DNA of 64,000 bases from an uncultured delta proteobacterium (GTDB lineage: Bacteria > Desulfobacterota > Desulfobaccia > Desulfobaccales > 0-14-0-80-60-11). The stretch's first letter is position 1. Each line of letters opens with the position of its first letter. The notes under the pieces were generated by a model, which made no database searches, was not told the origin of the DNA, and saw only the letters and a program-made list of their open reading frames with translations. Positions 9,354 to 35,043 of this stretch are shown piece after piece. Both the position numbers and the translations under genes were made by a program. The stretch is taken from assembly GCA_963709285.1 (NCBI GenBank), contig CAVPVR010000002.1, forward strand, positions 1,491 to 65,490. The letters run 5' to 3'.

Positions 9354-9911
9354 ATGATACCGCTTTTAATTATTCTTGGCGTGGTTCTCACCGTGTTTCT
9401 TTTGGGAGTGACCCAGTATAACCGCCTGGTGCGCAGCAAGCAGATGACCCAGGAGGGCTTGAGCGGCATTGACGTCCAACTCAAGCGCCGGGCCGATCTC
9501 ATCCCCAACCTCTTGGAGACGGTCAAGGGCTATATGGGTCATGAGCGCCAGGTCCTGGAAAAGGTGACGGAGCTCAGGGCTAAGAGCCTCCAGGCCGGCT
9601 CACTGGCTGAAAAGGGCCAGGCCGAAGGCCTGCTGTCCCGGGCCCTGGGGAACCTGTTTGCGGTGGCGGAAAACTATCCCGACCTCAAGGCTAGCCAGAA
9701 TTTCATCGAGCTGCAGAACTCCCTGGCCGAAATCGAGGAGCAGATACAACTTTCCCGGCGTTATTATAACGGCGCCGCCCGCAACCTGAACATCCTGGTG
9801 GATTCCTTTCCCAGCAATATCGTGGCCCGGATGTTCGGCTTCACCTCGGTGGAATACTTCGAACTGGAAGACCAGGGCGACCGGGCCGTGCCTCAGGTGA
9901 GTTTCGCTTAG
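9354..9911 (+). CDS. lemA: LemA family protein
   Basis: 185 aa. N-terminal TM helix, then the typical LemA sequence (YNRLV...IDVQLKRRADLIPNLLETVKGY...ENYPDLKA...RRYYN). Confidence 0.9.
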   Translation: MIPLLIILGVVLTVFLLGVTQYNRLVRSKQMTQEGLSGIDVQLKRRADLIPNLLETVKGYMGHERQVLEKVTELRAKSLQAGSLAEKGQAEGLLSRALGNLFAVAENYPDLKASQNFIELQNSLAEIEEQIQLSRRYYNGAARNLNILVDSFPSNIVARMFGFTSVEYFELEDQGDRAVPQVSFA

Positions 9912-9922
9912 GAGATAGCACC

Positions 9923-11861
9923 ATGAGGGTTTTCATCCGCAGCTTTCTGGTGGCGCTGGGGATGGTTGGGCTGTTGGCGCTTCCGGACCCGGCGGCCGCC
10001 ACTTACGGCGCCTCAGAGAGGATTCGGGACTTCCGCAGCTACATCGTGGTGCACCCCGACGCCACCATGACGGTCACCGAGACCATTACCGCGACTTGCG
10101 CCCGGCGGGAAATCAAACGGGGCATCATTCGGGAATTTCCCACCACCTACCGGGACAGGTTCGGCAACACTATTACGGTGGGCTTCGAAGTCAGGGAAGT
10201 GCTGCGGAACGGCAGACCGGAACCCTATCATCTAAAGGCCGCCCCGAACGGCCAAAAGATTTATATCGGCCAAAAAGAGGTTTACTTACGGCCTGGAGTT
10301 TACACGTACACCATCACCTATCATACGGACCGGCAGCTCGGTTATTTTCAGGACTTTGACGAGCTTTACTGGAATGTTACGGGCAACGGCTGGACCTTTC
10401 CCATCGACCATGCTGAAGCGGTAGTGGTGCTCCCGGAGGGGGCGCAAGTGATGCAGTCTGCCGCGTATACCGGACCCATGGGCGCCCAAGGTCAGGATTT
10501 CCGGGTCAGCCGCGACCGGGCTGGCAATATCGTGTTCACCACCACCCGGGGCCTCAACCCCCGGGAAGGCCTGACCATTGCGGTGGCCTGGCCCAAAGGC
10601 TTCGTGCGGGAACCTTCCGGCACAGAAAAAACCGCGTATTTCCTCAAGGACAACCTGAGCGCCGTCCTGGGCCTGCTCTGGCTGGTCATCGTTTTGGGCT
10701 ACTATCTGGTGGTTTGGCACCGGGTGGGCCGGGACCCGGAGGAGGGTGTCATTATCCCGCTGTTTGAGCCCCCCAAAGGCTTTTCGCCTGCGGGGACCCG
10801 GTTTCTCATGCGCCTGGGCTTTGACAACAAGGCCTTTACCGCCGCGGTGGTGGACATGGCCGTGAAGGGCTTCCTCACCATCGAAGAAAATAACGGTGAC
10901 TACACCCTGCGGAAACGAGACCACCTTACGAAGCCCCTTTCCTCCGGGGAGCGAAAACTCGCCGGCAGCTTGTTCTCCGGTCTCGGGGATGCCGTGGAAC
11001 TGAAAAACCAGAACCACGACCTCCTCGGCAAGGCCCGGGACGCCTTAAAAAGCACCCTGGACCGCGAATTGAACAAAATCTATTTTTTCAGGAATTCCCA
11101 ATACCTGATCCCCGGGGTGGGTATCACCCTGCTGGGCCTGGCCGCCATGGTCCTTACCGCCCGGGAAGCCTTTCAGGCAGGCTTCAGTATGTTGTGGCTG
11201 GCCATCTGGACCGTGGGCTGCTACTTCCTGGTGGTCAACGCCTGGAAAAAATGGCAGGCTGTCGGGGGCCCCGGCTTTCGGCAGTGGGGAAAGATCCTGG
11301 CCGCGCTGGGGGCCAGCCTCTTTGCCCTGTTTTTCCTGGCTGGCGAGGTTCTTGGGCTTTTTTTCCTGACCAGCGCCATCTCCCTGGGCGCCGCGCTCGT
11401 GCTCCTGGCGCTGATCGTCCTCAACTGCCTCTTTTTCCACCTCCTCAAGGCCCCCACCCTCCAGGGCCGCCGGGTTATGGATCAGGTGGAGGGCTTCAAG
11501 CTCTACCTTTCGGTGGCTGAAAAAGAGCGCCTGGAAATGTTCCATCCCCCGGAAAAGACGCCGGAACTTTTTGAAAAGTATCTGCCCTATGCCCTGGCCC
11601 TGGATGTGGAAAACGAGTGGAGTGAGCAGTTCGCCGAGGTGCTGGCCCGGGCCCAAGCCGAGGGCCGGGCTTATTCCCCGGTCTGGTATCACGGCAGCTC
11701 TTGGGATTCTTTCAGCCCCTCCCGCTTTGTCCAACACCCTGGGCAGCAGCTTTGCCGGGGCCATCGCCTCCGCGTCCACAGCGCCCGGGTCCTCCTCGGG
11801 GAGCGGCGGCGGAGGCTTCTCCGGCGGCGGGGGCGGCGGCGGCGGGGGCAGCGGCTGGTAG
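9923..11861 (+). pseudogene. DUF2207 domain membrane protein (usual LemA partner), with a +1 frame disruption near its Gly-rich C-terminus
   Basis: ORF 9923..11962 is DUF2207-like to about 11722. The expected tail (ALSNTLGSSFAGAIASASTAPGSSSGSGGGGFSGGGGGGGGGSGW, stop at 11859..11861) lies in the frame of ORF 11571..11861. There is an extra C in the run at 11720..11723. Confidence 0.8.
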
Positions 11862-11888
11862 GCGTTGTTATCACCAAGACCGGTAATC

Positions 11889-12984
11889 ATGCAGGCAGCG
11901 GAAGCCCCCCGGATCATCGAGCTGGCCGGCAGCCCCTGGGAGCGGGGCCGGCGGCACGGTGAGCTCCTAGCCGGGGAGATCCGGCTTATGCGCCGGGCCC
12001 TCTTGCAATATCTATCCCTTATTACCCTCTATCTGGGCGCCCTGCCCCTCCTCGCCGTTCTTCAACTTTTTACCCGCCTGTCTTTTTGGCCCCATATTCC
12101 CTCCCGACTCAAAGAAGAGCTCCAAGGGGTGGCCTCCGGGGCCCACCTGGGCCTCCCTCTGGTGCTGCTGATCAACACCCTGGACGACCTGGCCAACAAC
12201 CTGGCCTCCTGTTCCGCCCTGGCCGTAGGGGAGGGCCGCACTGCCCAGGGCCTCTTCCTGGCCGGGCGCAACCTGGACTATCCCGTTTTCGTGGACGTTC
12301 TGGTGGACCTCAAGACCCTGTTTCTCATAACCCCGGATCAGGGAGTGCCCTTGGTCTCCCTGGCTTGGCCCGGGTATGTGGGGGTGCTTACCGGCATGAA
12401 CCGAGCCGGGGTGGCCCTGGCCCAGCTCACCGCCATGTGTCGGGACACAACTCTCAAGGGTCTGCCCGCAGGGCTGCGCCACCGGCTGGCCCTGGAGCAG
12501 GAGACCACGGTCCAGGGCGTGGCCGCCCGTATCCTCGAGCCCCCGCGGACCATCGGCAACAACCTGCTCCTGTGCGGCCCCCGGGAGGCCCTGGTTCTGG
12601 AAGTTTCAGCCCACCGCCACGGCGTCCGCCGGCCGGCCGGGGGTGTCATTACGGCGACGAACCACTTCCAGAGTGACGAAATGGAGCCGGTCAAAGGGGA
12701 ATTTCGCCGACGCCCCCCTTCGCGCGGTCCTGTCCCCCTACCACTTTACCGAAGCTTACTCCCGGGACCGCAACACTCGCCTTCAGGAACTGGCGGCGAA
12801 CCGCTCTTTGGGGCCGGGGGACCTCCAGGCCATCCTGGGAGACCCCGGCATTGCCAATCCCGGCACGGTGAACAGCACGGTCTTCGCCCCGGCGGAACTC
12901 ACCCTGTGGGTGGCCCCCAAGCAGCCGCCGCCGGTAAGCCAGGGGCAATTTGCCGAAGTCAAATTGTGGGAGGCGGGACCGTGA
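11889..12984 (+). pseudogene. Peptidase C45 / acyl-CoA:6-aminopenicillanic-acid acyltransferase-like Ntn hydrolase, with a +1 frame disruption
   Basis: ORF 11865..13019 (TTG); ATG at 11889. AGSPWERGRRHGE...CSALAV...GRNLDYP...WPGYVGVLTGMN. After NHFQSDEMEPVKG the conserved sequence continues in the frame of ORF 12643..12984 (NFADAPLRAVLSPYHFTEAYSRDRNTRLQEL...). There is an extra G in gggg at 12696..12699. Confidence 0.75.
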
Positions 12985-13039
12985 CCGGGCACCCCGGTTT
13001 TCTTGACAGGTCGGGGTGATGTGATAATATTTTAGGTGC

Positions 13040-13116
13040 GGGCGATTAGCTCAGGTGGATAGAGCGTTGGTCTCCGGAACCAAAGGTCGGGCGTTCGAGT
13101 CGCCCATCGCCCGCCA
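13040..13116 (+). tRNA. tRNA-Arg (anticodon CCG)
   Basis: Hand-folded cloverleaf: acceptor GGGCGAT/ATCGCCC, D arm GCTC-AGGTGGATA-GAGC, anticodon arm TTGGT-CTCCGGA-ACCAA, T arm GGGCG-TTCGAGT-CGCCC, encoded CCA. Confidence 0.93.
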
Positions 13117-13465
13117 AGGAATTTTAGGAGGTTAGGCTGAATAGCCTGGCCTTTTTCTTTTTGATTATTTTCGTTTTCAACTGCATTTCCAACCTGGACT
13201 TGAAATAAGGGGAAATCGGGTGGGGTTGTGCGTTTATGGGAAAGGAGAATTATTCAGAAAAACTGCAATTTGCTTATTGTTCAATAAATTTGCTATCTTT
13301 ATCTATCGCCCACACCAGGTTCATAATTGCCTCTGCCCAGGTAGGCCCCGTGCCTTACTCCCACCTGTCGCCCTAGTGGGCAATTATTTGATGCAACTCT
13401 TCCCCAGTCACCGGGTCCAGGTAAGGAATTAGTCCATAGCTCCTGCAATGGTGGCGTCACCCTAC

Positions 13466-13497
13466 CCAGGGGAGGCCTCCGGGGGAGGGGGGAGGGT
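13466..13497. repeat. G-tract repeat fragment
   Basis: ccaggggaggcctccgggggaggggggagggt. Confidence 0.35.
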
Positions 13498-14166
13498 CAA
13501 TGGCGGCGTCGACGGAAAAAGGGGTACCTATAGCCGCACGAAAAATTTCTCAACTATCAGATGGCCCGTTTCGATATGCCGATCATCTCTGCAATTTTTC
13601 AAGAAGAGATGATAACTGCAAAGTTTCGCATGTGATCGCTATTTCTTCCCCCTCTCAAAGCAAGATTTCTCTGAGACTAGCGGTCAATTTCGCAGGACTG
13701 AGGAAGCATCAGCTTCTCTTTGGGCATATTAAGAAAATTTCTCCAAACTTTGAGGGAGGTCGACCGCTAACCCAGCAAATTTTCTTTTATTCGGTTTTCT
13801 GGACCAGGAATACCCCCAGGAGATAGTCAGTATTTCCCGAGGCAAATCTCAGGAAAAGGCTTGCATATTCCAAGCCATCATGTTAAAGAGTGGCAGGCTT
13901 GGGTCCCTCGTTGTAATCCCTATATTTTTTACTCCTCGTCTTTAATCTTTAGTATTTCCAAAGGACTTGTTAGGCATCACTTTGAATATTATAAATAAAA
14001 AATGCTTGAAGTTCGCACTCGTAATTACTTAATATAAGGAATTAAAAAATAATGAGGGGATATTTAGTCATTAGAAGGCCGATAATAAAGAGAAACAATT
14101 TGACAAGACTTTATATTCTAATAACTGTATAATGACTCTTATAATAACATTTCGGTTATTTAGTTG

Positions 14167-14304
14167 ATGATCGAGAATAAGCGAGAACTTCCCTTCCTAT
14201 TTTATATAATTCCTGCCGAATATTTTCACGACATCTGTAATAGTGAGAATGGGATTAAATGGATTGATCTTCGTGGTGACAATTTTGACCTCTTTCTGGA
14301 ATAA
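14167..14304 (+). CDS. Possible 45-aa small ORF immediately upstream of the lipid cluster (very uncertain)
   Basis: ATG at 14167, stop at 14302..14304, 6 nt before the next gene (MIENKRELPFLFYIIPAEYFHDICNSENGIKWIDLRGDNFDLFLE). AT-rich, no clear RBS, no recognised family. Confidence 0.2.
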   Translation: MIENKRELPFLFYIIPAEYFHDICNSENGIKWIDLRGDNFDLFLE

Positions 14305-14310
14305 AAAATT

Positions 14311-14854
14311 ATGGACAAGTCAAATATCTCAATATTCAATTTTTTAGAACTCCCTGATTACTTGACCCTGCTAGGGGGTATGCTGGGCATCCTTGGTGCA
14401 CTGGCCGCCATTAATCATCGCTTTACGTTGGCTGCCGTTCTCTTGGTGTTTACCGTGCCGTGTGACTATTTTGACGGCAAAATTGCCAGGGTCATGGGCC
14501 GGCGGCACCCAGAATATGGGGCCGCCCTCGATACTATCGTGGATACGGCCTCTTTTGTGATCTGTCCGGTAATATTCGGCTACTGCCTGGGCCTTAATTC
14601 CGTGTTCCACCTAGCCATTCTGATCCTCTTTGCCGGCGCGGCAATTCTCCGCCTAGCCGCGCTTTACCGTCCTGCCTCCCAGCCAAGAAGCCTTTACCGG
14701 CATGCCGGTGACCTATAACAATTTGATATTCCCTACAATTTACCTCATCTTAGGCTATGTGGGGCTGAAGGCCTTAGTGCCCCTCTTGTTCACTATACTT
14801 TACCTCGCCTCCGCTTATCTCATGGCTTCAACGATTCGCTGGAAAAAATTTTAG
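14311..14854 (+). pseudogene. CDP-alcohol phosphatidyltransferase (PssA/PgsA-like small form), with a +1 frame disruption
   Basis: Signature D-x2-DG-x2-AR-x8-G-x3-D-x3-D is present (DYFDGKIARVMGRRHPEYGAALDTIVD). After about 14661 the hydrophobic C-terminus continues in another frame (FTVLPPSQEAFTGMPVTYNNLIFPTIYLILGYVGLKALVPLLFTILYLASAYLMASTIRWKKF, stop 14852..14854). Confidence 0.8.
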
Positions 14855-14864
14855 GGGAGGTCCT

Positions 14865-15773
14865 GTGGGAGCCGTCAAGGTCATTGTTAATCCTCATGCC
14901 AGAAAACGGCTGAACTTTGAGTCATTCACCAAAAGATTTGACCCCCGGAACTTCAGTATTGCCGTAACCTCTCAGAGCGGTCACGCCCTTGAGCTGGCCA
15001 AGCAAGCGGTGGCTGAGGGGTTTGAGAAGGTGCTCGCGGTGGGCGGCGATGGCACGGTGAATGAGATCTTGAACGGTCTGGCCGAGTGCCAGACGTCCCT
15101 GGGGATTATTCCCGCGGGCGGCGCCAATGACTTTGCCACTCACTTGGGCATCCCGGGTGATTTCGAGAAGGCCCTCCAGGTTGCCTTACATGGCACTAAA
15201 AGAGTCGTTGATCTCATAAAGGTTCAGGATCGGTATTTCGCCACTGTGGGCGGTTTGGGGTTTGGGGCCAAAGTGGCGCTCAAGGTCAATAATCTCAAGG
15301 GCGCCTCCAAGGCGGGCCAGGCGCTGTACCGACTGTCGGGGAGTATCGTCTACAGCGCCTATGCTCTTTTCGAAATACTGTTTCGGCCAGAGTTTTGTAG
15401 TGCTTGTGCTCTGGTAATTGACGGACAAAAGCGCCACCTCAAGGTGTGGAGTCTCTTTGTAGGTAATCAGCCGCGGTTGGGAAAGAAATTTCTCATTCAT
15501 CCTGGCGCGGACAACCGCGATACCTGGCTGGATATTTGTGTAATTAACCGAATGACAAGCAAGCTTCGGCAGCTCCTGACCCTCCTGTATGCCTTCAGGG
15601 GTCGGCATACGGTGTTCCCATTCGTTGAGACCTACCGAGCCAGAACCGTGACGATTGAGTGTGACAATCCCCTGGAGTTTTTTGGCGACGGCGAGCTTCT
15701 CAACTTAAACCCTCCGCATATCATCGAACTGGTGCCGCGGGCCCTTACCGTGATGGTCCCGAACGGTTCTTAA
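14865..15773 (+). CDS. Diacylglycerol-kinase-family lipid kinase (YegS/BmrU-like)
   Basis: 302 aa, GTG start. DAGK catalytic motif (VLAVGGDGTVNEILNGL...IIPAGGANDFA). Confidence 0.85.
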   Translation: MGAVKVIVNPHARKRLNFESFTKRFDPRNFSIAVTSQSGHALELAKQAVAEGFEKVLAVGGDGTVNEILNGLAECQTSLGIIPAGGANDFATHLGIPGDFEKALQVALHGTKRVVDLIKVQDRYFATVGGLGFGAKVALKVNNLKGASKAGQALYRLSGSIVYSAYALFEILFRPEFCSACALVIDGQKRHLKVWSLFVGNQPRLGKKFLIHPGADNRDTWLDICVINRMTSKLRQLLTLLYAFRGRHTVFPFVETYRARTVTIECDNPLEFFGDGELLNLNPPHIIELVPRALTVMVPNGS

Positions 15774-15774
15774 C

Positions 15775-16674
15775 ATGAATACCCTAACCCTCTTCTTTGC
15801 CCTCATCGAAGGCTTATTCCTGCTGGGTTTCTTATTAATTGTGCGCCTCCACGTGCTGAAGAAAGGCACCGAAGAATCAAGGAAGAGGCTGTGGACGAAA
15901 TACGCCTGGTATTTGGGCATCGTCAATGTCTTTTTGCTTCTGACCTTCTGGGGGTATCCGTATTTTCAACTCTTGATGGGGGCCATCATCTTTTTAGCTC
16001 TCCGAGAGTTTTTCGGCGCACTCCGCCATAAAGGCCTGGAGGCCTATGAGTCTTTCGGAATATGCCTGGGTATGGGAGTTTTTGGCGCCTCTCTCGTCTT
16101 GACTCCTGCTGCCTTCTACTCGGTCGTTTTGCTTTTGCTGCTCCTGGTTCTCGCAGTGCCAATTGTCTCCTGCAGTCCGGAACTTGCGGTACCGAAAACC
16201 GCGGCTACCTTGTTGGCCGTGTTGTATATCAGCGTGCTGGCCAGTCATACGAGCTTCATCCAAAGTGCTGAAAACGGCCCATTCCGCATGGCCTTCCTCT
16301 ACACCTTGCTGGCCATTAACGACGGCTTTGCGGAGTTGCTGGGCCGCATGGTGGGAAGCAAGCCCCTCTGTACGGCGATAAGCCCCAACAAGACGGTGGG
16401 CGGGGCGCTGGGAGGTCTGCTCTCGGTCCTGGGCGGTTCCCTGGTGTTCAGTTTTCTGCTCCAGGGAATTCCTCTCTATCAATGTCTTTTAGCCGGAGCG
16501 CTCATCGGGCTGGCGGGTCAAACGGGGGATCTCGTGTCTTCGGCGTTCAAAAGAGACCTGGGCATAAAAGACTTCAGCAATCTCTTTCCCGGTCATGGCG
16601 GGGTGCTGGACAGGTTTGACGGTCTGATCTTCACCGCTCCAATATTTTACGGTTTTCTGAGGTTGATTTCTTAA
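15775..16674 (+). CDS. cdsA: Phosphatidate cytidylyltransferase (CDP-diglyceride synthase) family protein
   Basis: 299 aa polytopic protein. C-terminal CTP-transferase signature (SAFKRDLGIKDFSNLFPGHGGVLDRFDGLIFTAPIFY). The start is 1 nt after the upstream stop. Confidence 0.85.
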   Translation: MNTLTLFFALIEGLFLLGFLLIVRLHVLKKGTEESRKRLWTKYAWYLGIVNVFLLLTFWGYPYFQLLMGAIIFLALREFFGALRHKGLEAYESFGICLGMGVFGASLVLTPAAFYSVVLLLLLLVLAVPIVSCSPELAVPKTAATLLAVLYISVLASHTSFIQSAENGPFRMAFLYTLLAINDGFAELLGRMVGSKPLCTAISPNKTVGGALGGLLSVLGGSLVFSFLLQGIPLYQCLLAGALIGLAGQTGDLVSSAFKRDLGIKDFSNLFPGHGGVLDRFDGLIFTAPIFYGFLRLIS

Positions 16675-16690
16675 GGAGGAAATTTCCGAA

Positions 16691-17932
16691 ATGACGGCAA
16701 AAAGTATCCTTTTCCTGGGGGCCACCGGTTTCGGGGGGGGTAATCTGGCCCAGAAATTGCTTGTGCAGGGCCACCGGCTCATATGTCTCGCCAGAGCGAG
16801 CCAAAATACTTCAGGTCGCGAGCGGCTCAAAGCAGTTTTGGGTCAATTCTTTCCCAACAGCTTCCTGGAGGAATTGGAGCATACGCGCCTTGAGATCGTC
16901 GAGGGAGATATCACCAAGCCCAGATTGGGCTTAACGGAACGCATCTATGAGCGGCTTCGCCAGGAGGTTGGGGAAATCTGGCACTGCGCGGCGTTGCTCA
17001 GCTTCGACGCACGGCATCGCCCAGAGACGGAAGCGTGCAACGTCACCGGGACCTACCAGGTGCTTGAGTTCGCCAGGACCGCCCAGGTTAACCGGTTTCA
17101 CTATCTCAGTACAGCCTATGTCGCCGGGCAGCAGCAAGGCCTGATTCCAGAACAGTACCCCTGCCAGGCTCACGGCTTTAAAAATCCTTATGAACAGACG
17201 AAATGGCAGGCGGAAAAACTCGTCAGCGAATATGAGCTGGCCGGGCATGTCAAGGCGACCGTCTATCGCCCCTCCATCATTATCGGTGACACCAAGCCAG
17301 GCACGTTGTGTCCCAGCGGAGTTTACCGGGTGGCCCAACTCATTGCGGCCATTGCGGCGAAATACGGTTTGAAGGGCAATGGCAGGGAGGGCAGGGCCAG
17401 GATGAGAATTCCCGGCTCCAAAGACTGTGGTCTCAACCTCGTGCCCATTGATTTTGTGGTCAATGCCCTGAGCGCCATCGCAGAGAGGGCAGACGCCATC
17501 GGCAAGGTGTTTCACCTGGTCAATCCTTTGACCATGCCCAACGGGGAAGTGGTGGCCGCAGTCGGCGACGCCCTGGGAATAAAGCTGGAATTGGCTGAAA
17601 AGCAGGATTTTCAATTAGAACCCAAGACTGGGCCTGAACGGGCGCTGGCGAACATCATCAAGACGTATGTCCCTTATCTCCATGATAGACTGACCTTTGA
17701 TGAGAGGAACACCCGCAAGACCCTGAACGGCACGGACATTGTCTGTCCCCCCATTACCAGAGCGCGGCTGGCCAGCCTGGTGTCGTATTCCCAAAACGCC
17801 GCCGGGATGTCAGAAGTGGCTGAAACGCGGCCAGGTAAAAACCCGCCTGTTGTCAATAACGCGGTGTCTCCTGCATCACCTCCGTCATCAGGCCCTTTTT
17901 CGAGTCAGGCGCGAGGCCGGCACCATGTTTAA
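16691..17932 (+). CDS. Stand-alone thioester-reductase-type SDR (fatty acyl-CoA/ACP reductase-like, NAD_binding_4)
   Basis: 413 aa. LFLGATGFGGGNL...ICLARA...RLEIVEGDITKPRLGL...IWHCAALLSF...NVTGTYQVLEFA...YLSTAYV...YEQTKWQAEKLV...VYRPSII matches the terminal reductase-domain pattern. Confidence 0.8.
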   Translation: MTAKSILFLGATGFGGGNLAQKLLVQGHRLICLARASQNTSGRERLKAVLGQFFPNSFLEELEHTRLEIVEGDITKPRLGLTERIYERLRQEVGEIWHCAALLSFDARHRPETEACNVTGTYQVLEFARTAQVNRFHYLSTAYVAGQQQGLIPEQYPCQAHGFKNPYEQTKWQAEKLVSEYELAGHVKATVYRPSIIIGDTKPGTLCPSGVYRVAQLIAAIAAKYGLKGNGREGRARMRIPGSKDCGLNLVPIDFVVNALSAIAERADAIGKVFHLVNPLTMPNGEVVAAVGDALGIKLELAEKQDFQLEPKTGPERALANIIKTYVPYLHDRLTFDERNTRKTLNGTDIVCPPITRARLASLVSYSQNAAGMSEVAETRPGKNPPVVNNAVSPASPPSSGPFSSQARGRHHV

Positions 17933-20492
17933 GCGGGCTAACCGAAACTCTATCCAGGACTCCGCGTACATCCAGCCCTTACATGCGCCTGGAAGTCATC
18001 GGGAAGCCATCGTGGGCTCCAAAGCCGCTCGCCTTGCAGACATGGCCCAGCAAGGCTTTCCGGTGCCACTCGGCTTCGTCATTACCGTGGCTTCCATGGA
18101 GGCCTTCCTGTCCTATAACGGCATCACGGTGACCGCAGAAGCCTCCCCGGAAGCCGTGCGCCAGGCGATCGTCAAAGGCAGATTCCCCGATAACCTTGCC
18201 TGCGCCATAACCGCGGCGGCCCGAGAACTTGGCGCCGATGAAGTGGCGGTGCGTTCCTCGGCGCTCGGTGAGGACGGTCTGGCCATTTCCATGGCCGGGC
18301 AACTTTCCACCTTCCTCAAAGTGCATCCTGAGGATATCTTGCCAAAGGTGCAAGAATGCTGGGGCGCCTTATTCAGCCAGAGGGTGACGGCTTACCGACT
18401 CAAGCAAGAGGTATCCACATCCCGGGCCATGGGGGTCATTGTCCAAAAGCAGATCCAGGCAAGCTATGCTGGGGTGGCCTTTTCCCTGGATCCCAGCTTG
18501 CTGTCCACGGACCAGTTGCTGGTGGAGTGGGTTGAGGGCCTGGGCGAGTCCCTGGTTTCCGGACAGGTGACGCCGGCCCGCCTCAGCCTGCGCCGCAAAG
18601 ATCCAGTGGTGCCTGAGGAAGTCCCTCTACCTCTCGCCGGGGCCTTACAAGAGCTTTTGCCCCTTATGTTTCAGGCGGAAAAGCTGTTTAGCCACCCTCT
18701 GGATGTGGAGTGGTGCGTGGACGGCACCGGCCTCCACATCTTGCAGGCCCGACCCATCACCGGATTGATGGGCGAGAACATGGTCATCTGGTCCAATGTT
18801 AACATCGGCGAAAACTACTCCCAGGCCCTCAGTCCGTTTACCTGGTCGGTGGTGGAAGCCTTTCGCTTCGGCTATTTCAGGGCCCTGTTCCAGCATCTCG
18901 GCTTGCCGCCGGAGGCCCTCCGAGAAGCAGCCCCGGTCATCAGGAATCTTATCGGCATCCATGGAGGGCGCGTCTACTACAACCTGACAAACTGGTATGA
19001 GATGCTGGCGCTGTTCCCCCTGACCAGTTGGTTTAGAAAGTTTCTCGACCACTACATTGGCCAACGTGTGCCGTTCACCTATATCCCCCGCCGTCCCAAG
19101 CTGCGATTGTTTCGGGAATGGCGCCAAATCCACAGAAACTTAAGGTTCTGGGGTCGGCTCTTCTGGAATTATCTGCGCCTCGAACGCCAGGTGGCTCTCT
19201 TCGAGGACGAGTTCTATACCGCCCGGAAACGGTGGCGGTCGAAGCCCCTGGCTGCCTGTTCTCTCGAGGAACTGGAGGAATTGCTCCAGGATATCATGGG
19301 ATTTCTGAAAAATCAGTGGGGTCGGGCGGCGCTGGCCGATTTTTCGGCCATGATCTTTCCCGGTTGGCTGGAACTTTTGGCAAAGAAGTGGCTGGCGGAC
19401 TCCTCCGGCACAATGACCACGCAGCTTTTGAGGGGCATGAGCCTCAAAAGCACCGAGGGCTTGAAGCTCATCTACGAGATTGCCCAGACCATCGGCCAGG
19501 ACCCCAAACACAGGCAGCTTCTTCTGGACAGCCGGTATGAGGCATTAGAGGAGTCTTTGGACTCTGACCTGAGAGCTGCCGTCGAGCGCTTCATGGAGCA
19601 GTTCGGCGGCCGTTGTTATCATGAGCTCATGATAACCTCTCCCACCTTTGAAGAGCGTCACGATCTTTTCTGGGAGTTGGTACGAAGTTATTATCTGACG
19701 CCTGACAAGAATCCCCAGGACAAGGAGCAGACTGAAGCCCAAAATCGCGACCGCTTTACCGGCGAATGTCTGAGTCGCCTTCCGTTAGCCCGGCGATTGG
19801 TTTTCAGAAAAGTATTGCACGATGCGCACAAGGCCATCAAAGCCCGGGAGGTGGTGCGCCTCTGTCAAAGTCTGATTTATGGGGAACTGCGTCGGGTCGC
19901 TCTGGAACTCGGGGCCCGGCTGGTTACCGATGGCTATCTGATGACGGCCGATGAGGTGTTCCTCCTCACGGTGGAGGAAGTAAGCCACCTTTGCCAGGGG
20001 AAATTCTGGCAGCCCGGAGCACTCACTGAATCTTTGCCTCGCCGCCAGCACACGTGGGATGCGACCCAAGCGAGAGAGCTGCCGGAATTTTTCATTCTGC
20101 CCCGAGGGAGGTATTTTCAGAATTTTGCGGATGTTGTAACATCTGCCGGAGATCGGGAAGTGTTCCGGGGCCTTGGAGTCTCCGGAGGGCGGACGGAGGG
20201 CAAAGTCAGGATTATCCATGATCCTTCCCAAGACAAGGGCTTGGAGCCGGGGGAAATTTTGGTGGCAAAATCCACGGACCCTGGCTGGACGCCTTTATTT
20301 ATAGTGGCCGGCGGCTTGATTCTCGAAAAGGGCGGCCTCCTCTCCCATGGGGCCATCGTGGCCCGGGAGTTCGGCATCCCGGCGGTGGTGGGGGTGGAAG
20401 AAGCCACGCGTCTGTTGTCCGATGAACAACGGGTCCTAGTGGATGGCACCATCGGGGAGGTCAAAATTCTGTCTGACCGCGCCAATGCTTAA
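17925..20492 (+). CDS. PEP-utilising phosphotransferase (PPDK_N ATP-grasp + large central domain + C-terminal swivelling phosphohistidine domain); rifampicin-phosphotransferase-like architecture
   Basis: ORF 17739..20492. ATG at 17925 overlaps the upstream stop (ATGTTTAA). N-terminal PPDK_N (GSKAARLADMAQQGFPVPLGFVIT...VAVRSSALGEDG). C-terminal mobile domain (ILVAKSTDPGWTPLF...GGLILEKGGLLSHGAIVAREFGIPAVVG). No PEP/pyruvate-binding TIM-barrel domain. Confidence 0.8.
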   Translation: MFKRANRNSIQDSAYIQPLHAPGSHREAIVGSKAARLADMAQQGFPVPLGFVITVASMEAFLSYNGITVTAEASPEAVRQAIVKGRFPDNLACAITAAARELGADEVAVRSSALGEDGLAISMAGQLSTFLKVHPEDILPKVQECWGALFSQRVTAYRLKQEVSTSRAMGVIVQKQIQASYAGVAFSLDPSLLSTDQLLVEWVEGLGESLVSGQVTPARLSLRRKDPVVPEEVPLPLAGALQELLPLMFQAEKLFSHPLDVEWCVDGTGLHILQARPITGLMGENMVIWSNVNIGENYSQALSPFTWSVVEAFRFGYFRALFQHLGLPPEALREAAPVIRNLIGIHGGRVYYNLTNWYEMLALFPLTSWFRKFLDHYIGQRVPFTYIPRRPKLRLFREWRQIHRNLRFWGRLFWNYLRLERQVALFEDEFYTARKRWRSKPLAACSLEELEELLQDIMGFLKNQWGRAALADFSAMIFPGWLELLAKKWLADSSGTMTTQLLRGMSLKSTEGLKLIYEIAQTIGQDPKHRQLLLDSRYEALEESLDSDLRAAVERFMEQFGGRCYHELMITSPTFEERHDLFWELVRSYYLTPDKNPQDKEQTEAQNRDRFTGECLSRLPLARRLVFRKVLHDAHKAIKAREVVRLCQSLIYGELRRVALELGARLVTDGYLMTADEVFLLTVEEVSHLCQGKFWQPGALTESLPRRQHTWDATQARELPEFFILPRGRYFQNFADVVTSAGDREVFRGLGVSGGRTEGKVRIIHDPSQDKGLEPGEILVAKSTDPGWTPLFIVAGGLILEKGGLLSHGAIVAREFGIPAVVGVEEATRLLSDEQRVLVDGTIGEVKILSDRANA

Positions 20493-20514
20493 CGTGACCC
20501 TGTTGCGAAAATAT

Positions 20515-20558
20515 CTTGAGGGGCGGGCCGGGGGACCACTGGCCCCCTCTCCCAAAAG
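20515..20558. repeat. G/C-tract repeat, minimal form (both termini, no cargo)
   Basis: cttgaggggcgggccgggggaccactggccccctctcccaaaag. Confidence 0.7.
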
Positions 20559-20602
20559 ACTATTTTGCCACAATCTCAACCTAAGAAGAGAGTAAGCCCG
20601 CG

Positions 20603-21463
20603 ATGGTAACCGATATTGGGCTGTTTGTGAAAGAACGGTTTCCCCTTCCCGTCACCCTGCCCCTCACGCTGATTCTCTTTGCGGGTCCGGCCAGCTTAAG
20701 TCCGCCTGGCCTTTGGGAGGCGATTTTCGGCTGGGCCAGCACCTTTCTGGCTCTGTTATGCTTGAGAATAGCCGACGATCTGGCCTCCCTTCAGATCGAT
20801 ACGGTCGCGCACCCCGAGCGCGGCCTGCCGTCCGGGCGCATCAAGGCGGCGAACCTCAAGGCTTTTGTGGCTGTGAGCCTTGGCGCCATGGTTTTGTGGC
20901 AGAGCACCTCCCAGGCCTTCCTGTTGGTCGTGGCCACGATAACCTTTTACATTCTCTTTTTTAAAGGCTTCAAAGAGAGGCTCCCTCTCCTTATGCGGCC
21001 TTTCTTCTCAAATGTAATCTTCGCGGTGATCCCATGCTATGCTGGTTTGGTGAGCGGTAATTTGAGGATATCCCAGCTTTTCCTGGCCGGTTTTGTCTGG
21101 CTTGCCGCGGTGGCCCATGAATGGGCCCACAACGTGCATGGACCCGAAGAGGCAGGCTTGGGGCTGGCCGATTACGTCGAAGCCATAGGCGCGCGTCCAT
21201 CTGCGGCCGTGGCCCTAGCCCTGTTCGCCGGCGCCGTTTTTTTCGCCTGGCTGGCGTGGCTAAGAATGGCCAAGCCCTGGGTTTTTGGCATGCTGCTCGT
21301 GATAACTACGGTCCACGTAGGATTTTTAGGGGTCAAGCTTATCAAGGAGCCGGAATACAAAAATGCCAAACTTTTTTATGTGGCCGGTTTCACTTTTTTC
21401 CTCTTGCCCCTGGCCGGCTTGATCATAGATAGCCTCTTAGGCCAGATTGCCATACCCCAATAG
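20603..21463 (+). CDS. Polytopic membrane protein, divergent UbiA-prenyltransferase-like
   Basis: 286 aa with about 8 TM helices. Partial match to the first UbiA motif (RIADDLASLQIDTVAHPERGLPSGRI, compare NDxxDxxxD...RPLxSG). The second Asp-rich motif is not evident. Confidence 0.4.
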   Translation: MVTDIGLFVKERFPLPVTLPLTLILFAGPASLSPPGLWEAIFGWASTFLALLCLRIADDLASLQIDTVAHPERGLPSGRIKAANLKAFVAVSLGAMVLWQSTSQAFLLVVATITFYILFFKGFKERLPLLMRPFFSNVIFAVIPCYAGLVSGNLRISQLFLAGFVWLAAVAHEWAHNVHGPEEAGLGLADYVEAIGARPSAAVALALFAGAVFFAWLAWLRMAKPWVFGMLLVITTVHVGFLGVKLIKEPEYKNAKLFYVAGFTFFLLPLAGLIIDSLLGQIAIPQ

Positions 21464-21861
21464 ACCCGACCGCAATCGAGAGGAGAAGGCCCTCTTTCCG
21501 TTAAGGCCAGCGATACCAGCGGACCGCTGGCCACTTACTATTTTGGCCAATACGGGACTTGGGAGAGCAGCATACCCACCATCTCTCCTCCAGAAAAATC
21601 TAGGTAACGGCTCTGACTAGAAACTTAGCAAGCGGCTGAAAATTCTACTTATCCTACCCATAGCGACACATTAGCTCATCATCAAGGACGCCAAACTGTA
21701 AAGGTCCGGTAGACCCCTCCTTTGATAAAACACCACCCAGTTCTGATATCCAAATCATCTCTGAAATTTTTCCCACTCTAGCGATAATGGTCGATCCTGG
21801 CAAGAACTACAAAGGACGTTAAGAAGGCCAGTTTCTGCAGATCTTCTCTCTCCTCCTTAAC

Positions 21862-32634: not shown

Positions 32635-33400
32635 GCAAGAAATGCACGGCCGGGCGCCCGGTGGCCGGGTGGGGCTCCACCAGGACCGGAGTTTCATACA
32701 CCGTCTCCAGCACCTCCGGCCGGCAGGCGGCAAAGGTGTGGTCATCCCGGTAAATGCCTTGATCTTTTAAAAAAATCAGGCGCTCACAGTACTGGGTGGC
32801 CAGGTTGACGTCGTGCATCACGGCCAGGACGGTGAGGCCCCGGGTGCGGTTGAGGTCCGTCAGCAGATCGAAGACCTCGAGTTTGCGGCGCACATCCAGG
32901 GAGGAGGTGGCTTCATCCAAAAAGAGAATGGGGGTGTCTTGGGCCAGGGCTCGGGCCAGGACCACCAACTGGCGTTCGCCGCCGGACACCTGGGTAATGA
33001 GGCGGGAGGCCAGTTCCGTGGTTTGGGTTTCGGCCATGGCCTGGTGCACCGCGTCCAGGTCCGCCGGGGAATCACCTTGAAAGCGCTGGCGGTAAGGGTA
33101 GCGCCCCATGAGCACTACCTCCAAGCAGGTGAAGGGGAAGCTGACCCAGGTAAACTGGGGCACCACGGCCACCTGGCGGGCCAGGGCCCGGGGACGCCAG
33201 GCCTCTAAAGAGGTGCCGTTATACCACACCTCTCCGGAGCGTAACGGCACCAGACCCGTCAGGGCGTTCAGTAGGGTGCTCTTGCCGGAGCCGTTGGGAC
33301 CGAGGAGGCCCACAAATTCTCCGGTGGCCACCTGGAAGTTCAGGTTTTCCAGGATGACCCGGTCGCCATAGGCCACGGTGAGGTTTTCGACGCGAATCAT
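32540..33400 (-). CDS. ABC transporter ATP-binding protein (FepC/FecE/BtuD-type iron-chelate or cobalamin importer)
   Basis: 286 aa. Walker A GPNGSGKST, signature VSGGERQ, Walker B ILFLDEATS. The last ~30 codons run into a G/C-rich repeat. Confidence 0.9.
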   Translation of the reverse strand: MIRVENLTVAYGDRVILENLNFQVATGEFVGLLGPNGSGKSTLLNALTGLVPLRSGEVWYNGTSLEAWRPRALARQVAVVPQFTWVSFPFTCLEVVLMGRYPYRQRFQGDSPADLDAVHQAMAETQTTELASRLITQVSGGERQLVVLARALAQDTPILFLDEATSSLDVRRKLEVFDLLTDLNRTRGLTVLAVMHDVNLATQYCERLIFLKDQGIYRDDHTFAACRPEVLETVYETPVLVEPHPATGRPAVHFLPRGTGRGGQGSKTPAPSPNPLREQKHAGKSG

Positions 33401-33483
33401 AGGAATTGGTTAGTAATGATTGACTAGTTTTTACTGGTAATAATTCAAAAGTTGTTTTTTGAAATGCCTTTAGAGAATAATAA

Positions 33484-33897
33484 TTAATACCCCGTAGTTC
33501 GTGAAATAAACAGCCACATAAATGGAAATGATATAATTCCAACAACTGTTATTGATAAACATGTCCAGGGATATTTTTTCCAATAATCATGATACTTATC
33601 AAAAATATCTAATAATTTTGGCGGTGATTCCCTTGCTATAATATTTCTAGCTGTAGTCACAATTATTGCAATTAAAAAGATTAAACCAATAGGAACAAAA
33701 AAAGCATGTAAAAGGCCAATCGTAAAAATGTATATAAAACGTTTCCATAGAGGACCTTGTTCAAAAGTTTCTCTACTCTCACGAATTTCATCAAAACATA
33801 ATTTCAATGCGCAATAATTACCAAGAATAAAACTGAGAATAAAGCCAATGACAAATGTTAATTCCCCAATATATTTTATCATGGCAAAATTCCCCAA
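33484..33897 (-). CDS. Orphan small membrane protein in an AT-rich insert
   Basis: 137 aa with 3-4 TM helices (ELTFVIGFILSFILGNYCAL; FIYIFTIGLLHAFFVPIGLIFLIAIIV; CLSITVVGIISFPFMWLFI). Same strand as the flanking operon. Base composition is sharply different from its neighbours. Confidence 0.45.
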   Translation of the reverse strand: MGNFAMIKYIGELTFVIGFILSFILGNYCALKLCFDEIRESRETFEQGPLWKRFIYIFTIGLLHAFFVPIGLIFLIAIIVTTARNIIARESPPKLLDIFDKYHDYWKKYPWTCLSITVVGIISFPFMWLFISRTTGY

Positions 33898-33954
33898 AAA
33901 TTAATAATAATTACAGTAATAAGATCTTTGAGGCTTGATTGCTGTAATCTTACA

Positions 33955-35043
33955 CTATACCAGTGTCTGGCCTTTAGTAACTTTCAAGAGATAGCAGAAA
34001 AAGGGACCCCCCAGGAGGGCGGTGATAATTCCCACCGGCAGTTCCTGGCCATAAGGCAGGATGACCCGGGCCAGAGTGTCGGCGGCTATGAGGAGCACGG
34101 CCCCGGCCAGGCCTGCGACTGGCAGAAGGCGCCGGTGGTCAGGCCCCACCAACAGGCGCGCTACATGGGGAACAATGAGGCCCACGAAACCAATGATGCC
34201 GGACACCGCTACCGCGCCGGCGGTGATGAGGGAAGCGGCTAAAAGCAGGGTGAGGCGCACCCGGCTCACTGCCAGGCCCAGTTGCTGGGCCGGGGCGTCC
34301 CCCAGGGTGAGGAGGTTAAGTTCCCGGGAATAGAGCAAGAGAACGAGGCTGCCCACCAGAATATAGGGAAAGGCAAAGAACACGTGGGACCAGCCCCGGG
34401 CCGACAGGCTCCCCATGATCCAGAAAACGATGGTTGAGAGGCTGTCGGCGTAAAGGAACTTCACCAGACTGATAAGGGACGAGAGGAAAGCGCTGACAAT
34501 GACCCCGGCCAGGATCAGGGTGCCGTGCTGGATGCCCCCGGCCATGGCCCCTAGGGCCAAGACCAGGACCAGGGCCGCCACTGCGCCCAGGAGGGCCATC
34601 AGGGGCACCAGACCCAGGGACCCTAGAAGCACCCCGCTCAAACCCAGACTCAAGGCCAGAGAGGCCCCGAAGGCCGCGCCCGCGGCCACCCCCAGGGTAA
34701 AGGGTTCGGCCAGGGGGTTCAGCAGGATGCCTTGAAAGGCCGCACCCGCCAGGCTGAGCCCCAGCCCCACCAGGCCGGCGAGGACAATGCGGGCTATCCT
34801 AATATGGAAAATTACCGCCAGGGCCGTGGCTTCGGCCGGGTTCAGGGTATCCCCTGCGGCCCAACGCTTTACCAGGCTGAACAGGTGGCCATAACTCAAC
34901 TTATAGGGCCCCACCCCGGCGGCATAGACCGCCATAATCACCAGGAGCACGGTAAGTCCGGCCAAGAGAAGAGGATAGCTCCAGCCCCGGAGCAGCCAGG
35001 GCTGCAGGGTATGACTCTCACCGTGCGGTAAATTTTCACTCAT
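33955..35043 (-). CDS. FecCD/BtuC-family ABC transporter permease
   Basis: ORF 33955..35295; likely start ATG at 35043 (MSENLPHGESH...). Typical FecCD sequence (RIARIVLAGLVGLGLSLAGAAFQGILLNPLAEPFTLGV...GIIGFVGLIVPHVARLLVG). Confidence 0.9.
   Translation of the reverse strand: MSENLPHGESHTLQPWLLRGWSYPLLLAGLTVLLVIMAVYAAGVGPYKLSYGHLFSLVKRWAAGDTLNPAEATALAVIFHIRIARIVLAGLVGLGLSLAGAAFQGILLNPLAEPFTLGVAAGAAFGASLALSLGLSGVLLGSLGLVPLMALLGAVAALVLVLALGAMAGGIQHGTLILAGVIVSAFLSSLISLVKFLYADSLSTIVFWIMGSLSARGWSHVFFAFPYILVGSLVLLLYSRELNLLTLGDAPAQQLGLAVSRVRLTLLLAASLITAGAVAVSGIIGFVGLIVPHVARLLVGPDHRRLLPVAGLAGAVLLIAADTLARVILPYGQELPVGIITALLGGPFFCYLLKVTKGQTLV

Follow-up and report, generated by a model that had tools for sequence, protein, structure and literature searches.

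The stretch of DNA analysed here, hereafter the window, comprises 64,000 nt of an uncultured delta proteobacterium (assembly GCA_963709285.1, contig CAVPVR010000002.1, positions 1,491-65,490; coordinates below are window positions) and contains a cassette of six genes, g1 to g6, all on the plus strand between 14311 and 21463 according to the list of open reading frames (ORFs) and their translations. The genes encode a cytidine diphosphate (CDP)-alcohol phosphatidyltransferase (g1), a lipid kinase of the diacylglycerol (DAG) kinase family (g2), a CdsA-like cytidylyltransferase (g3), a thioester reductase (g4), a dikinase resembling the rifampicin phosphotransferase Rph (g5) and a UbiA-like membrane protein (g6). 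Judged from its sequence, we regard the cassette as an operon for phospholipid biosynthesis in which the combination of enzymes is new and the product probably so. We propose, with a probability of about one half, that the six genes constitute one biosynthetic pathway for an unusual, probably ether-linked, phospholipid with a serine or ethanolamine head group. An original prediction, made from the letters of the sequence, had described a self-contained module for a specialised phospholipid or ether-type lipid, composed of six packed genes on one strand. The spacings are exactly those given there, with gaps of 10, 1 and 16 nt for g1-g2, g2-g3 and g3-g4, an 8-nt overlap of g4 and g5, and 110 nt between g5 and g6. 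The module itself is supported by its recurrence in other genomes, by a phosphatidylserine (PS) decarboxylase in one related locus, and by variants with CarS-like proteins or UbiA-CarS fusions; its product and the order of its steps are what we infer.

We collected 34 related loci (L-numbered, from metagenome-assembled genomes (MAGs) or metagenome contigs) and mapped them by tblastn. In 31 of the 31 loci with sequence ahead of the UbiA gene (29 of them distinct), the gene immediately before it, in the same orientation, is the Rph-like one, and in most cases the two share 1-32 nt. Every locus with enough flank also has a kinase and a membrane cytidylyltransferase, with a CDP-alcohol transferase as the usual companion, and the core of dikinase, UbiA protein, kinase and cytidylyltransferase recurs in about 30 loci, in several phyla and several gene orders. 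The named sources are MAGs of Deltaproteobacteria/Desulfobacteraceae, Myxococcaceae/Myxococcales, Anaerolineae, Rubrobacteridae and Pseudomonadota. The loci are of two types. Type A (the window, L001, L032, L034, L031 and L002) combines a DAG-kinase-family kinase with a CdsA-like protein, and holds the thioester reductase in four of six loci and the CDP-alcohol transferase in five of six. Type B (L003/4, L005/6, L008-L014, L017, L022, L025-L030 and L033) carries a fusion of an HMG-CoA reductase-like (HMGR-like) domain with a kinase, together with a CarS-like or CdsA-like protein and often a CDP-alcohol transferase. Asked whether the six genes travel together, the comparison returned the same order between different flanks in L001 (UbiA identity 85%) and in L032 (50%), in the latter behind a divergent Crp-type regulator. 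The order is thioester reductase, DAG kinase, Rph, UbiA, CDP-alcohol transferase, CdsA in L034, and HMGR-kinase, Rph, UbiA, CDP-alcohol transferase, (PS decarboxylase), CarS in L033, L028 and L029. One Desulfobacteraceae cassette has a gene of the ThiF family (E1-like adenylyltransferase) between CarS and the dikinase (L008:6451-7400).

The variants also hint at which enzymes act one after the other. As the HMGR-kinase fusion occupies the slot of the thioester reductase and DAG kinase, we read the exchange as a non-homologous swap of a module leading from thioester to alcohol to phosphate, and the fusion together with the collinearity argues that reductase and kinase perform consecutive steps. 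Analogously, the UbiA-CarS fusion P0025 (490 aa, L030:2880-4352), with its CarS-like CDP-archaeol-synthase domain, and the collinearity argue for UbiA and cytidylyltransferase as consecutive steps; a 480-aa protein, P0067, is by its sequence probably a second such fusion. The CarS-like variants in relatives match the CDP-archaeol synthase model. In L033, a phosphatidylserine/archaetidylserine decarboxylase (9996-10910) between the CDP-alcohol transferase and CarS passes TIGR00163 (124 bits, cut-off 112). Genes for glycerol-1-phosphate (G1P) dehydrogenase, geranylgeranylglyceryl phosphate (GGGP) synthase and geranylgeranyl diphosphate (GGPP) synthase were found in none of the mapped cassettes.

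The arrangement is rare. A pattern scan recovered carriers in at least 8 of 185,579 species genomes, all MAGs; the scan was built on 14 sequences and covers only the AVAHE-type half of the g6 family, making eight a lower bound, and the metagenome scan yielded mostly short contigs. This rarity, and scores of g3 and g1 far under the CdsA and PssA equivalog cut-offs, agree with the earlier view that this is not a housekeeping locus. Likewise, comparison with NCBIfam, the PDB and the literature placed the reductase, dikinase and UbiA-like genes in no characterised pathway. Among the 8 million full texts searched, no description of the cassette was found; the Lipocone paper mentions only other UbiA and HMGR neighbourhoods.

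The signature protein of the cassette is g6, which scored 46.2 bits against PF01040 (cut-off 34.2). By sequence and by structural model it has the all-helical UbiA fold of nine transmembrane segments, with the archaeal digeranylgeranylglyceryl phosphate (DGGGP) synthase (DGGGPS) as closest solved relative and an atypical metal/diphosphate site. The AlphaFold2 model reached a pLDDT of 94.2 and a pTM of 0.91, and its top Foldseek matches in the PDB are all of the UbiA family (6m31 and 7bpu, both DGGGP synthase at TM 0.73, then 4od4, 8j8j and 4tq3; TM 0.6-0.73). The only PDB match of the family profile is the Methanocaldococcus jannaschii (Mj) DGGGPS (E 1.4e-10). DGGGP synthase makes the second ether bond of archaeol. 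Against the equivalog models of this enzyme g6 attains 46.5 of 269 bits (PRK12882), 30.4 of 296 (PRK12883) and 24.6 of 353 (PRK12884). When 1.84 billion representatives were searched exhaustively with the family profile, 78 members came out at E<=1e-30, after which the matches drop into ordinary UbiA families. A word index returned 62 homologues, each with a generic name and each of metagenome or MAG origin, and the exact g6 sequence had no identical entry in the assembly collection. UbiA motif 1 (Mj N62, D63, D66, D70) takes the form D58-D59-x-x-[D/S]62-x-x-x-D66 in the family, followed by P-x-R-x-L-x-x-G. The subfamily further has an invariant H172-[E/D]-x-x-H176, one turn upstream of the position of the lost motif 3. 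This H[ED]xxH is present in nearly all family matches down to about 145 bits and absent under about 115 bits; as it tracks the score boundary, it marks a discrete UbiA subfamily.

All six domain assignments of the original prediction were recovered by Pfam (CDP-OH_P_transf, DAGK_cat with YegS_C, CTP_transf_1, NAD_binding_4, PPDK_N with PEP-utilizers, and UbiA). For g5, these include the reading as a dikinase of Rph-like architecture, with 177 bits for PF01326 and 88.4 bits for PF00391; the phosphoenolpyruvate (PEP)/pyruvate TIM-barrel domain (PF02896) was not found in the Pfam search, which returned PPDK_N and PEP-utilizers only. The phospho-histidine motif GGLLSHGAIVARE is present, and Listeria RPH is matched at 193 bits. 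No NCBIfam cut-off is reached: PRK06241.2-2 gave 500 of 883 bits, RedH 360, PigC 346, the Rph equivalogs 283.1 (cut-off 999, NF041857) and 216 (cut-off 1700, NF000283), and PEP synthase 240 of 739.75 (TIGR01418). The g5 subfamily is discrete, with 41 clusters at 593 bits or more before a fall to 403 bits, many of them on the same contigs as UbiA matches; thus the g5 and g6 subfamilies are both small and discrete and share contigs, a matching rarity. Several g5 homologues are annotated as rifampicin phosphotransferase by JGI.

The remaining genes resemble lipid enzymes, mostly from a distance. The kinase g2 (PF00781 99.4 bits, YegS_C, PF19279, 74.7 bits) passes TIGR00147 for the YegS/Rv2252/BmrU lipid kinases (141.9 bits, cut-off 118.65), has the GGDGT motif as VGGDGT, and has Staphylococcus aureus DgkB as its closest solved relative (81 bits). 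g3 scored 170.4 bits for PF01148, and its nearest and only PDB match is Thermotoga maritima CdsA (65 bits); against the CdsA equivalog PRK11624 it reached 76.2 bits (cut-off 385), with residues 130-298 only being aligned. Its translation carries the full CdsA signature, S-x-F-K-R-x4-K-D-x-S-x2-F-P-x-H-G-G-V-x-D-R-F-D, the PROSITE pattern being S-x-[LIVMF]-K-R-x4-K-D-x-[GSA]-x2-[LIF]-[PGS]-x-H-G-G-x-x-D-R-x-D. The transferase g1 scored 46.8 bits for PF01066 once its frameshift was repaired. Its best NCBIfam matches, both below cut-off, are archaetidylserine synthase (82 bits, cut-off 240) and pssA (72.5 bits, cut-off 107); the same two models are matched first by its orthologues, and the one in L003 passes pssA (109.1 versus 107). 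The motif DG-x2-AR-x9-G-x3-D-x3-D, as read in translation, and the domain are present only with one base at 14657 removed. The frameshift of the first gene, as had been noted earlier, is real in this sequence and consists of a single extra C at 14657, as seen in alignment with the intact 180-aa orthologues of L001 and L032. Serine specificity of the g1-type transferase is supported indirectly, via the PS decarboxylase of L033.

The thioester reductase g4 scored 163.4 bits for PF07993 and 164.5 bits for TIGR01746 (cut-off 213), and has the GxxGxxG Rossmann motif (GATGFGG) and YxxxK (YEQTK); a carrier-protein domain was not found in it. Its nearest structures are the terminal reductase of MxaA (113 bits), a thioester reductase domain of a polyketide synthase (PKS) and carboxylic acid reductase, with fatty acyl-CoA reductase at only 33 bits. 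MxaA-type thioester reductases release primary alcohols. With 69% identity to L001, versus 85-89% for the other genes, and a dN of 0.205, g4 evolves much faster than its neighbours. It is also the optional or replaceable member of the cassette.

The fusion that replaces it in type B joins a class I HMG-CoA_red domain (338-343 bits) to a kinase of the EcKL/APH fold. HMG-CoA reductase and thioester reductase share four-electron chemistry from thioester to alcohol. Against TIGR00533 the fused domain scored 270-287 bits (cut-off 441.8), and its nearest solved relative is archaeal. It keeps the catalytic E559, K691, D767 and H866 (human numbering) as well as R590, D690, K692 and N755. In every fused protein, however, Lys735 is replaced by H, Q or Y, Ser684 by Glu and His752 by Asn; the HMMER and MAFFT alignments differ by one residue here, in the segment N-x-N-K-N-L-V-G-S that holds Lys735 (MYKNLIGS in 6hr7), and the Myxococcaceae-type proteins could place an Arg nearby. 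Lys735 forms a salt bridge with the carboxylate of HMG (PMC9500038). The replacements could point to a remodelled acyl pocket, and the fusion may act as combined reductase and kinase on a compound that is not HMG-CoA.

Assembled into a pathway, g4 would reduce an acyl-thioester, of CoA or a carrier protein, to a lipid alcohol, which g2 would phosphorylate. The dikinase g5, coupled to g6, would supply a phosphorylated donor (mono- or di-phosphate), and g6 would form an ether bond from this donor to a lipid or glycerol-phosphate-type acceptor in the manner of DGGGP synthase. The resulting lipid phosphate would be converted to a CDP-lipid by g3, and g1 would exchange CMP for serine, with a decarboxylase encoded elsewhere able to convert the product to the ethanolamine form. 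Three orders are conceivable. The product of reductase and kinase could receive further phosphate from the dikinase and then donate an alkyl or prenyl group to an acceptor of the glycerol-phosphate type. It could instead be the backbone and acceptor, a hydroxyalkyl phosphate in the role that GGGP plays for DGGGPS, with the dikinase activating a second alcohol. Finally, the CDP-alcohol itself could be the donor for the UbiA protein. The order of the steps, the role of the dikinase and the product are all matters that we infer.

Several observations weigh against this pathway. The window clade, g6 included, has Ser in place of Mj D66 of motif 1, and motif 3 (Mj D180/D183/D187) is gone from g6, the aligned residues being V178, P181 and G185. 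Known Rph-family enzymes make phosphate monoesters and PigC activates a carbonyl, and no Rph-family enzyme is known to make an alkyl diphosphate. In DGGGPS, alanine mutants of D66 and of the motif-3 residues cripple the enzyme, with substitution of D66 strongly reducing activity (PMC9385802). Lacking motif 3 and with Ser at D66, g6 may thus not be a conventional prenyl-diphosphate transferase, and the lost motif 3 may be a sign of a non-diphosphate donor. Saturated alkyl diphosphates are moreover poor UbiA donors, and phytanyl diphosphate is no donor (PMC9385802), so that a donor derived from a fatty alcohol would need an allylic position or new chemistry. The reductase is absent from L002 and L031, and the CDP-alcohol transferase from the Myxococcaceae-type loci. 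The strong HMG-CoA reductase score of the fusion (343 bits) means that mevalonate could still be its product. The window copy of g1 is frameshifted; all evidence is in silico, and all relatives are MAGs or metagenome contigs.

Compared with known systems, the closest is the archaeal line from DGGGPS via CarS and archaetidylserine synthase to the decarboxylase. g6 is nearest to the M. jannaschii enzyme by profile and by fold, CarS-like proteins and UbiA-CarS fusions occur in relatives, the transferases match archaetidylserine synthase first, the L033 decarboxylase passes its model, and the class I HMGR-like domain of type B has an archaeal nearest solved relative. Unlike the archaeal line, the hosts are bacterial, the cassettes lack genes for G1P dehydrogenase, GGGP synthase and GGPP synthase, the scores are far under curated cut-offs, motif 3 of UbiA is replaced by H[ED]xxH with a variable central Asp in motif 1, reductase, kinase and dikinase are added, and the window has CdsA rather than CarS. 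The bacterial route from DAG via phosphatidic acid, CDP-DAG and PS to phosphatidylethanolamine (DgkB/YegS, CdsA, PssA, Psd) uses the same families in the same logical order. It differs in that g3 and g1 fall below the equivalog cut-offs (76 of 385 and 72.5 of 107 bits), in the tie to the UbiA/dikinase pair and a thioester reductase, and in the rare and mobile character of the cassette. Given the failed equivalog cut-offs, the missing UbiA motif and the absent G1P dehydrogenase, GGGP synthase and GGPP synthase genes, the cassette belongs to neither the archaeal nor the bacterial line.

Other relatives are more partial. Rph, PigC/RedH and the flavonoid-phosphorylating, PEP-synthase-like dikinases share the three-part architecture of g5, and the Rph_4th domain is found in g5 orthologues. 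Dikinases of the Rph/PigC type act on hydrophobic hydroxyl or carbonyl groups with ATP, releasing AMP and Pi. g5 differs by missing all family cut-offs; its subfamily is discrete, with translation always coupled to that of a UbiA enzyme of the membrane, and a role in making alkyl or prenyl (di)phosphates would be new for the dikinase family. Myxococcota and sulfate reducers are known ether-lipid producers, and the bacterial ether-lipid systems, ElbD/AGPS of myxobacteria and PlsA/Ger of anaerobes, share their host phyla with the cassette. The cassette nonetheless contains no ElbD-type multidomain protein, AGPS or PlsA homologue, and any ether bond made here would come from a UbiA-type transfer, which has an unrelated mechanism. 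More tentatively, and with considerable doubt on our part, the cassette might represent a further, third bacterial route to ether phospholipids that has so far gone unrecognised, with an acyl-thioester first reduced to an alcohol and phosphorylated, the donor made by an Rph-like dikinase, the ether bond by a UbiA protein of the HExxH type, and an archaeal-style finish by CarS/CdsA, serine synthase and decarboxylase. In that case the ether bond would possibly be placed on a glycerol-free hydroxyalkyl-phosphate backbone.

Is the window copy itself functional? DNA homology with L001 is limited to 14059-21478, at 85-90% identity between unrelated flanks, by which the cassette is a discrete unit. 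Relative to the 85%-identical L001 cassette, dN/dS is 0.17-0.31 across the six genes, and within g1 it is 0.14 before and 0.18 after the frameshift; all six genes are thus under purifying selection, and such low values in both halves indicate that the frameshift is recent or a sequencing error. The insertion in the g5-g6 spacer is missing in L001, where this spacer is 22 nt, and elsewhere the two genes overlap or nearly touch. It is unique in the window and the loci and contains a hairpin (20520-20553) whose minimum free energy of -37 kcal/mol is unexceptional (z -1.96), and from its position the insertion could affect coupling or expression of g6. We consider it unlikely that the window copy is a decaying, horizontally acquired island that no longer makes its product, as could be read from the +1 frameshift at 14657, from an insertion that breaks an otherwise universal g5-g6 coupling, and from the left flank, with its tRNA-Arg gene and AT-rich orphan DNA, as well as the 36-nt repeat on either side. 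The dN/dS of 0.14-0.31 for all genes and both halves of g1 speaks against decay, as do the catalytic motifs, which are all intact; one-base indels in GC runs are frequent errors of assembly, and neither an integrase nor a tRNA-derived att repeat was found.

The same searches bear on mobility. No integrase was detected, nor any repeat of at least 14 nt of the tRNA-Arg 3' end. We regarded an integrative element as too weak to call, the only sign of one being the direct repeat, identical at 29 of 36 positions, which may be a leftover att site, a shared operator or a coincidence. Horizontal mobility of the cassette is supported by its context and not by a recognisable element.

A lipid alcohol or prenol could also be salvaged for a prenylated specialised metabolite instead of a membrane lipid. 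Reductase, kinase and dikinase would make an allylic diphosphate from an isoprenoid or enoyl acid, UbiA would transfer the chain onto a small acceptor, and a polar group, linked via phosphate, would be added by the CDP enzymes; the product would be a signal or resemble an antibiotic. The logic from alcohol via phosphate and diphosphate to UbiA is that of plant VTE5/VTE6/VTE2 and of archaeal salvage by geranylgeraniol kinase (GGK) and geranylgeranyl phosphate kinase (GGPK). Both g3 and VTE5 are members of PF01148, a family that includes CTP-dependent prenol kinases. The rare and patchy distribution and variable genomic context would suit such a metabolite, as would a nonribosomal peptide synthetase (NRPS) gene adjoining L003 and a PKS-like gene adjoining L029, and no genes are assigned to the known activities of GGK and GGPK (PMC9385802). 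Nevertheless, we hold salvage to be quite unlikely. g3 keeps the full signature of a cytidylyltransferase, not a kinase, and CarS-like proteins stand in for it in relatives; neither the DAGK/EcKL kinases nor the Rph-like dikinase is related to VTE6; further steps are provided by a CDP-alcohol transferase and, in L033, a PS decarboxylase; and the NRPS and PKS neighbours do not recur.

Decidedly improbable, in our judgment, is a variant route to isoprenoid precursors, where the HMGR-kinase would yield phosphomevalonate, the dikinase would add the second phosphate, the membrane enzymes would use the isoprenoid, and thioester reductase with DAG kinase would be a derived analogue. The HMG-CoA_red score and the retained catalytic residues point this way; the replacement of Lys735, Ser684 and His752 in every fused protein points the other. 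None of the mapped cassettes was found to contain the decarboxylase or an isoprenyl-diphosphate synthase that the route involves, mevalonate and HMG-CoA are unlikely substrates for a DgkB-like kinase and an MxaA-like reductase, and the CdsA/CarS protein and serine transferase would be left without a role. Finally, a chance adjacency of two unrelated units, kinase, CdsA and PssA for the recycling of DAG and the Rph-like protein with a membrane partner for detoxification or resistance, is most improbable: each set resembles a known self-sufficient function and the JGI label on several homologues is rifampicin phosphotransferase, but wherever a locus is long enough both sets occur together, be it in Desulfobacterota, Myxococcota or another phylum, with several gene orders among the loci, the UbiA-CarS fusion joins them, g5 is far from Rph (283 bits versus a cut-off of 999), and the g5 and g6 subfamilies are equally rare.

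Table 1. Features of the cassette and its surroundings in the window, and HMGR-kinase fusions of related loci (locus:position).
Feature	Position	Strand	Description
g1	14311-14854	+	CDP-alcohol phosphatidyltransferase, PssA/archaetidylserine-synthase-like, 180 aa after repair
g2	14865-15773	+	Soluble DAG-kinase-family lipid kinase, YegS/DgkB type
g3	15775-16674	+	CdsA-family membrane cytidylyltransferase, CDP-lipid synthase type, N-terminal half divergent
g4	16691-17932	+	Stand-alone thioester reductase, short-chain dehydrogenase/reductase (SDR), four-electron 'R-domain' type
g5	17925-20492	+	Rph/PigC-like phosphohistidine dikinase (ATP-grasp, central domain, His swivel), 855 aa from ATG
g6	20603-21463	+	UbiA-fold membrane protein, signature gene, discrete subfamily
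Leader/promoter region	14059-14310	+	Conserved, non-coding, GC 0.306, homologous to L001
Spacer insertion with GC-rich hairpin	20497-20587	+	About 88 nt, particular to the window genome
36-nt imperfect direct repeat, left copy	13565-13600	.	29/36 identical to right copy; uncertain significance
36-nt imperfect direct repeat, right copy	21737-21772	.	29/36 identical to left copy
HMGR-kinase fusions	L003:7531-10302, L005:11839-14274, L028:5042-7456, L029:736-3549, L033:3282-5936		Fusions of type B relatives

The left edge of the cassette needed correction. The original prediction had let the block begin at 14167, about 1.2 kb after a tRNA-Arg gene; the real start is the ATG at 14311, and the tRNA, a tRNA-Arg(CCG) at 13040-13116, indeed lies 1194 nt ahead of g1. 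A 46-aa ORF starting with TTG (14164-14304) was rejected as a gene, being unconserved in L001 despite a DNA alignment of about 75-80% identity. The lower GC content ascribed to the block is marginal (0.559 versus 0.578 for the rest of the window), with 24% of equal-sized windows as low or lower; the cluster genes range from 0.51 to 0.58 against a median of 0.60 for the other genes of the window. The AT-rich 5' edge held up, for the upstream DNA only: clearly AT-rich is 13117-14310, with GC 0.44 in the approximately 940 nt between tRNA-Arg and the conserved leader (13117-14058) and 0.31 in the leader (14059-14310). Neither part has an Rfam match. The 940-nt segment showed no homology to L001, and the one ORF tested in it (13500-13826) had no Pfam match. 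A Pistol ribozyme match inside g4 (16786-16843; 23 bits versus a gathering cut-off of 34.5, E 0.95) was taken as chance.

The remaining window resembles an ordinary sulfate-reducer chromosome, encoding ATP sulfurylase, a hybrid-cluster protein, two-component proteins and transporters; outside the cassette, lipid genes were not found in it. Directly upstream of tRNA-Arg lies an AAT-like gene (11865-13019; family of acyl-CoA:6-aminopenicillanic acid acyltransferase and peptidase C45), preceded by a LemA and DUF2207 pair (9354-11962); all are probably unrelated to the cassette. Around minus-strand ABC/FecCD transporter genes, GC dips locally to 0.433 (33001-34000) and the AT skew is strong, 0.36 (34001-35000).

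To our knowledge, the added reductase, kinase and dikinase have no precedent in lipid assembly, and neither the Rph-like dikinase nor the HMGR-like reductase-kinase fusion has been linked to it before. Members of the family are few, and the copy in the window could be defective; intact orthologues exist, and the cassette is a compact candidate of five to seven genes that is directly testable, with the exchange of thioester reductase plus DAG kinase for HMGR-kinase and the HExxH in place of an Asp-rich motif as clear biochemical handles. If the product were only a minor specialised lipid, made by few uncultured lineages, its ecological effect would be small, and the enzymology would be new all the same. 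Were the third ether-lipid route true, it would mean new chemistry for the UbiA and PEP-utilising families and an archaeal-type lipid assembly line in bacteria. Bacterial ether-lipid routes are known only in part (PlsA/Ger, ElbD/AGPS), and the synthesis of ether-linked or non-canonical lipids in bacteria bears on the "lipid divide" and on the reading of sediment biomarkers.

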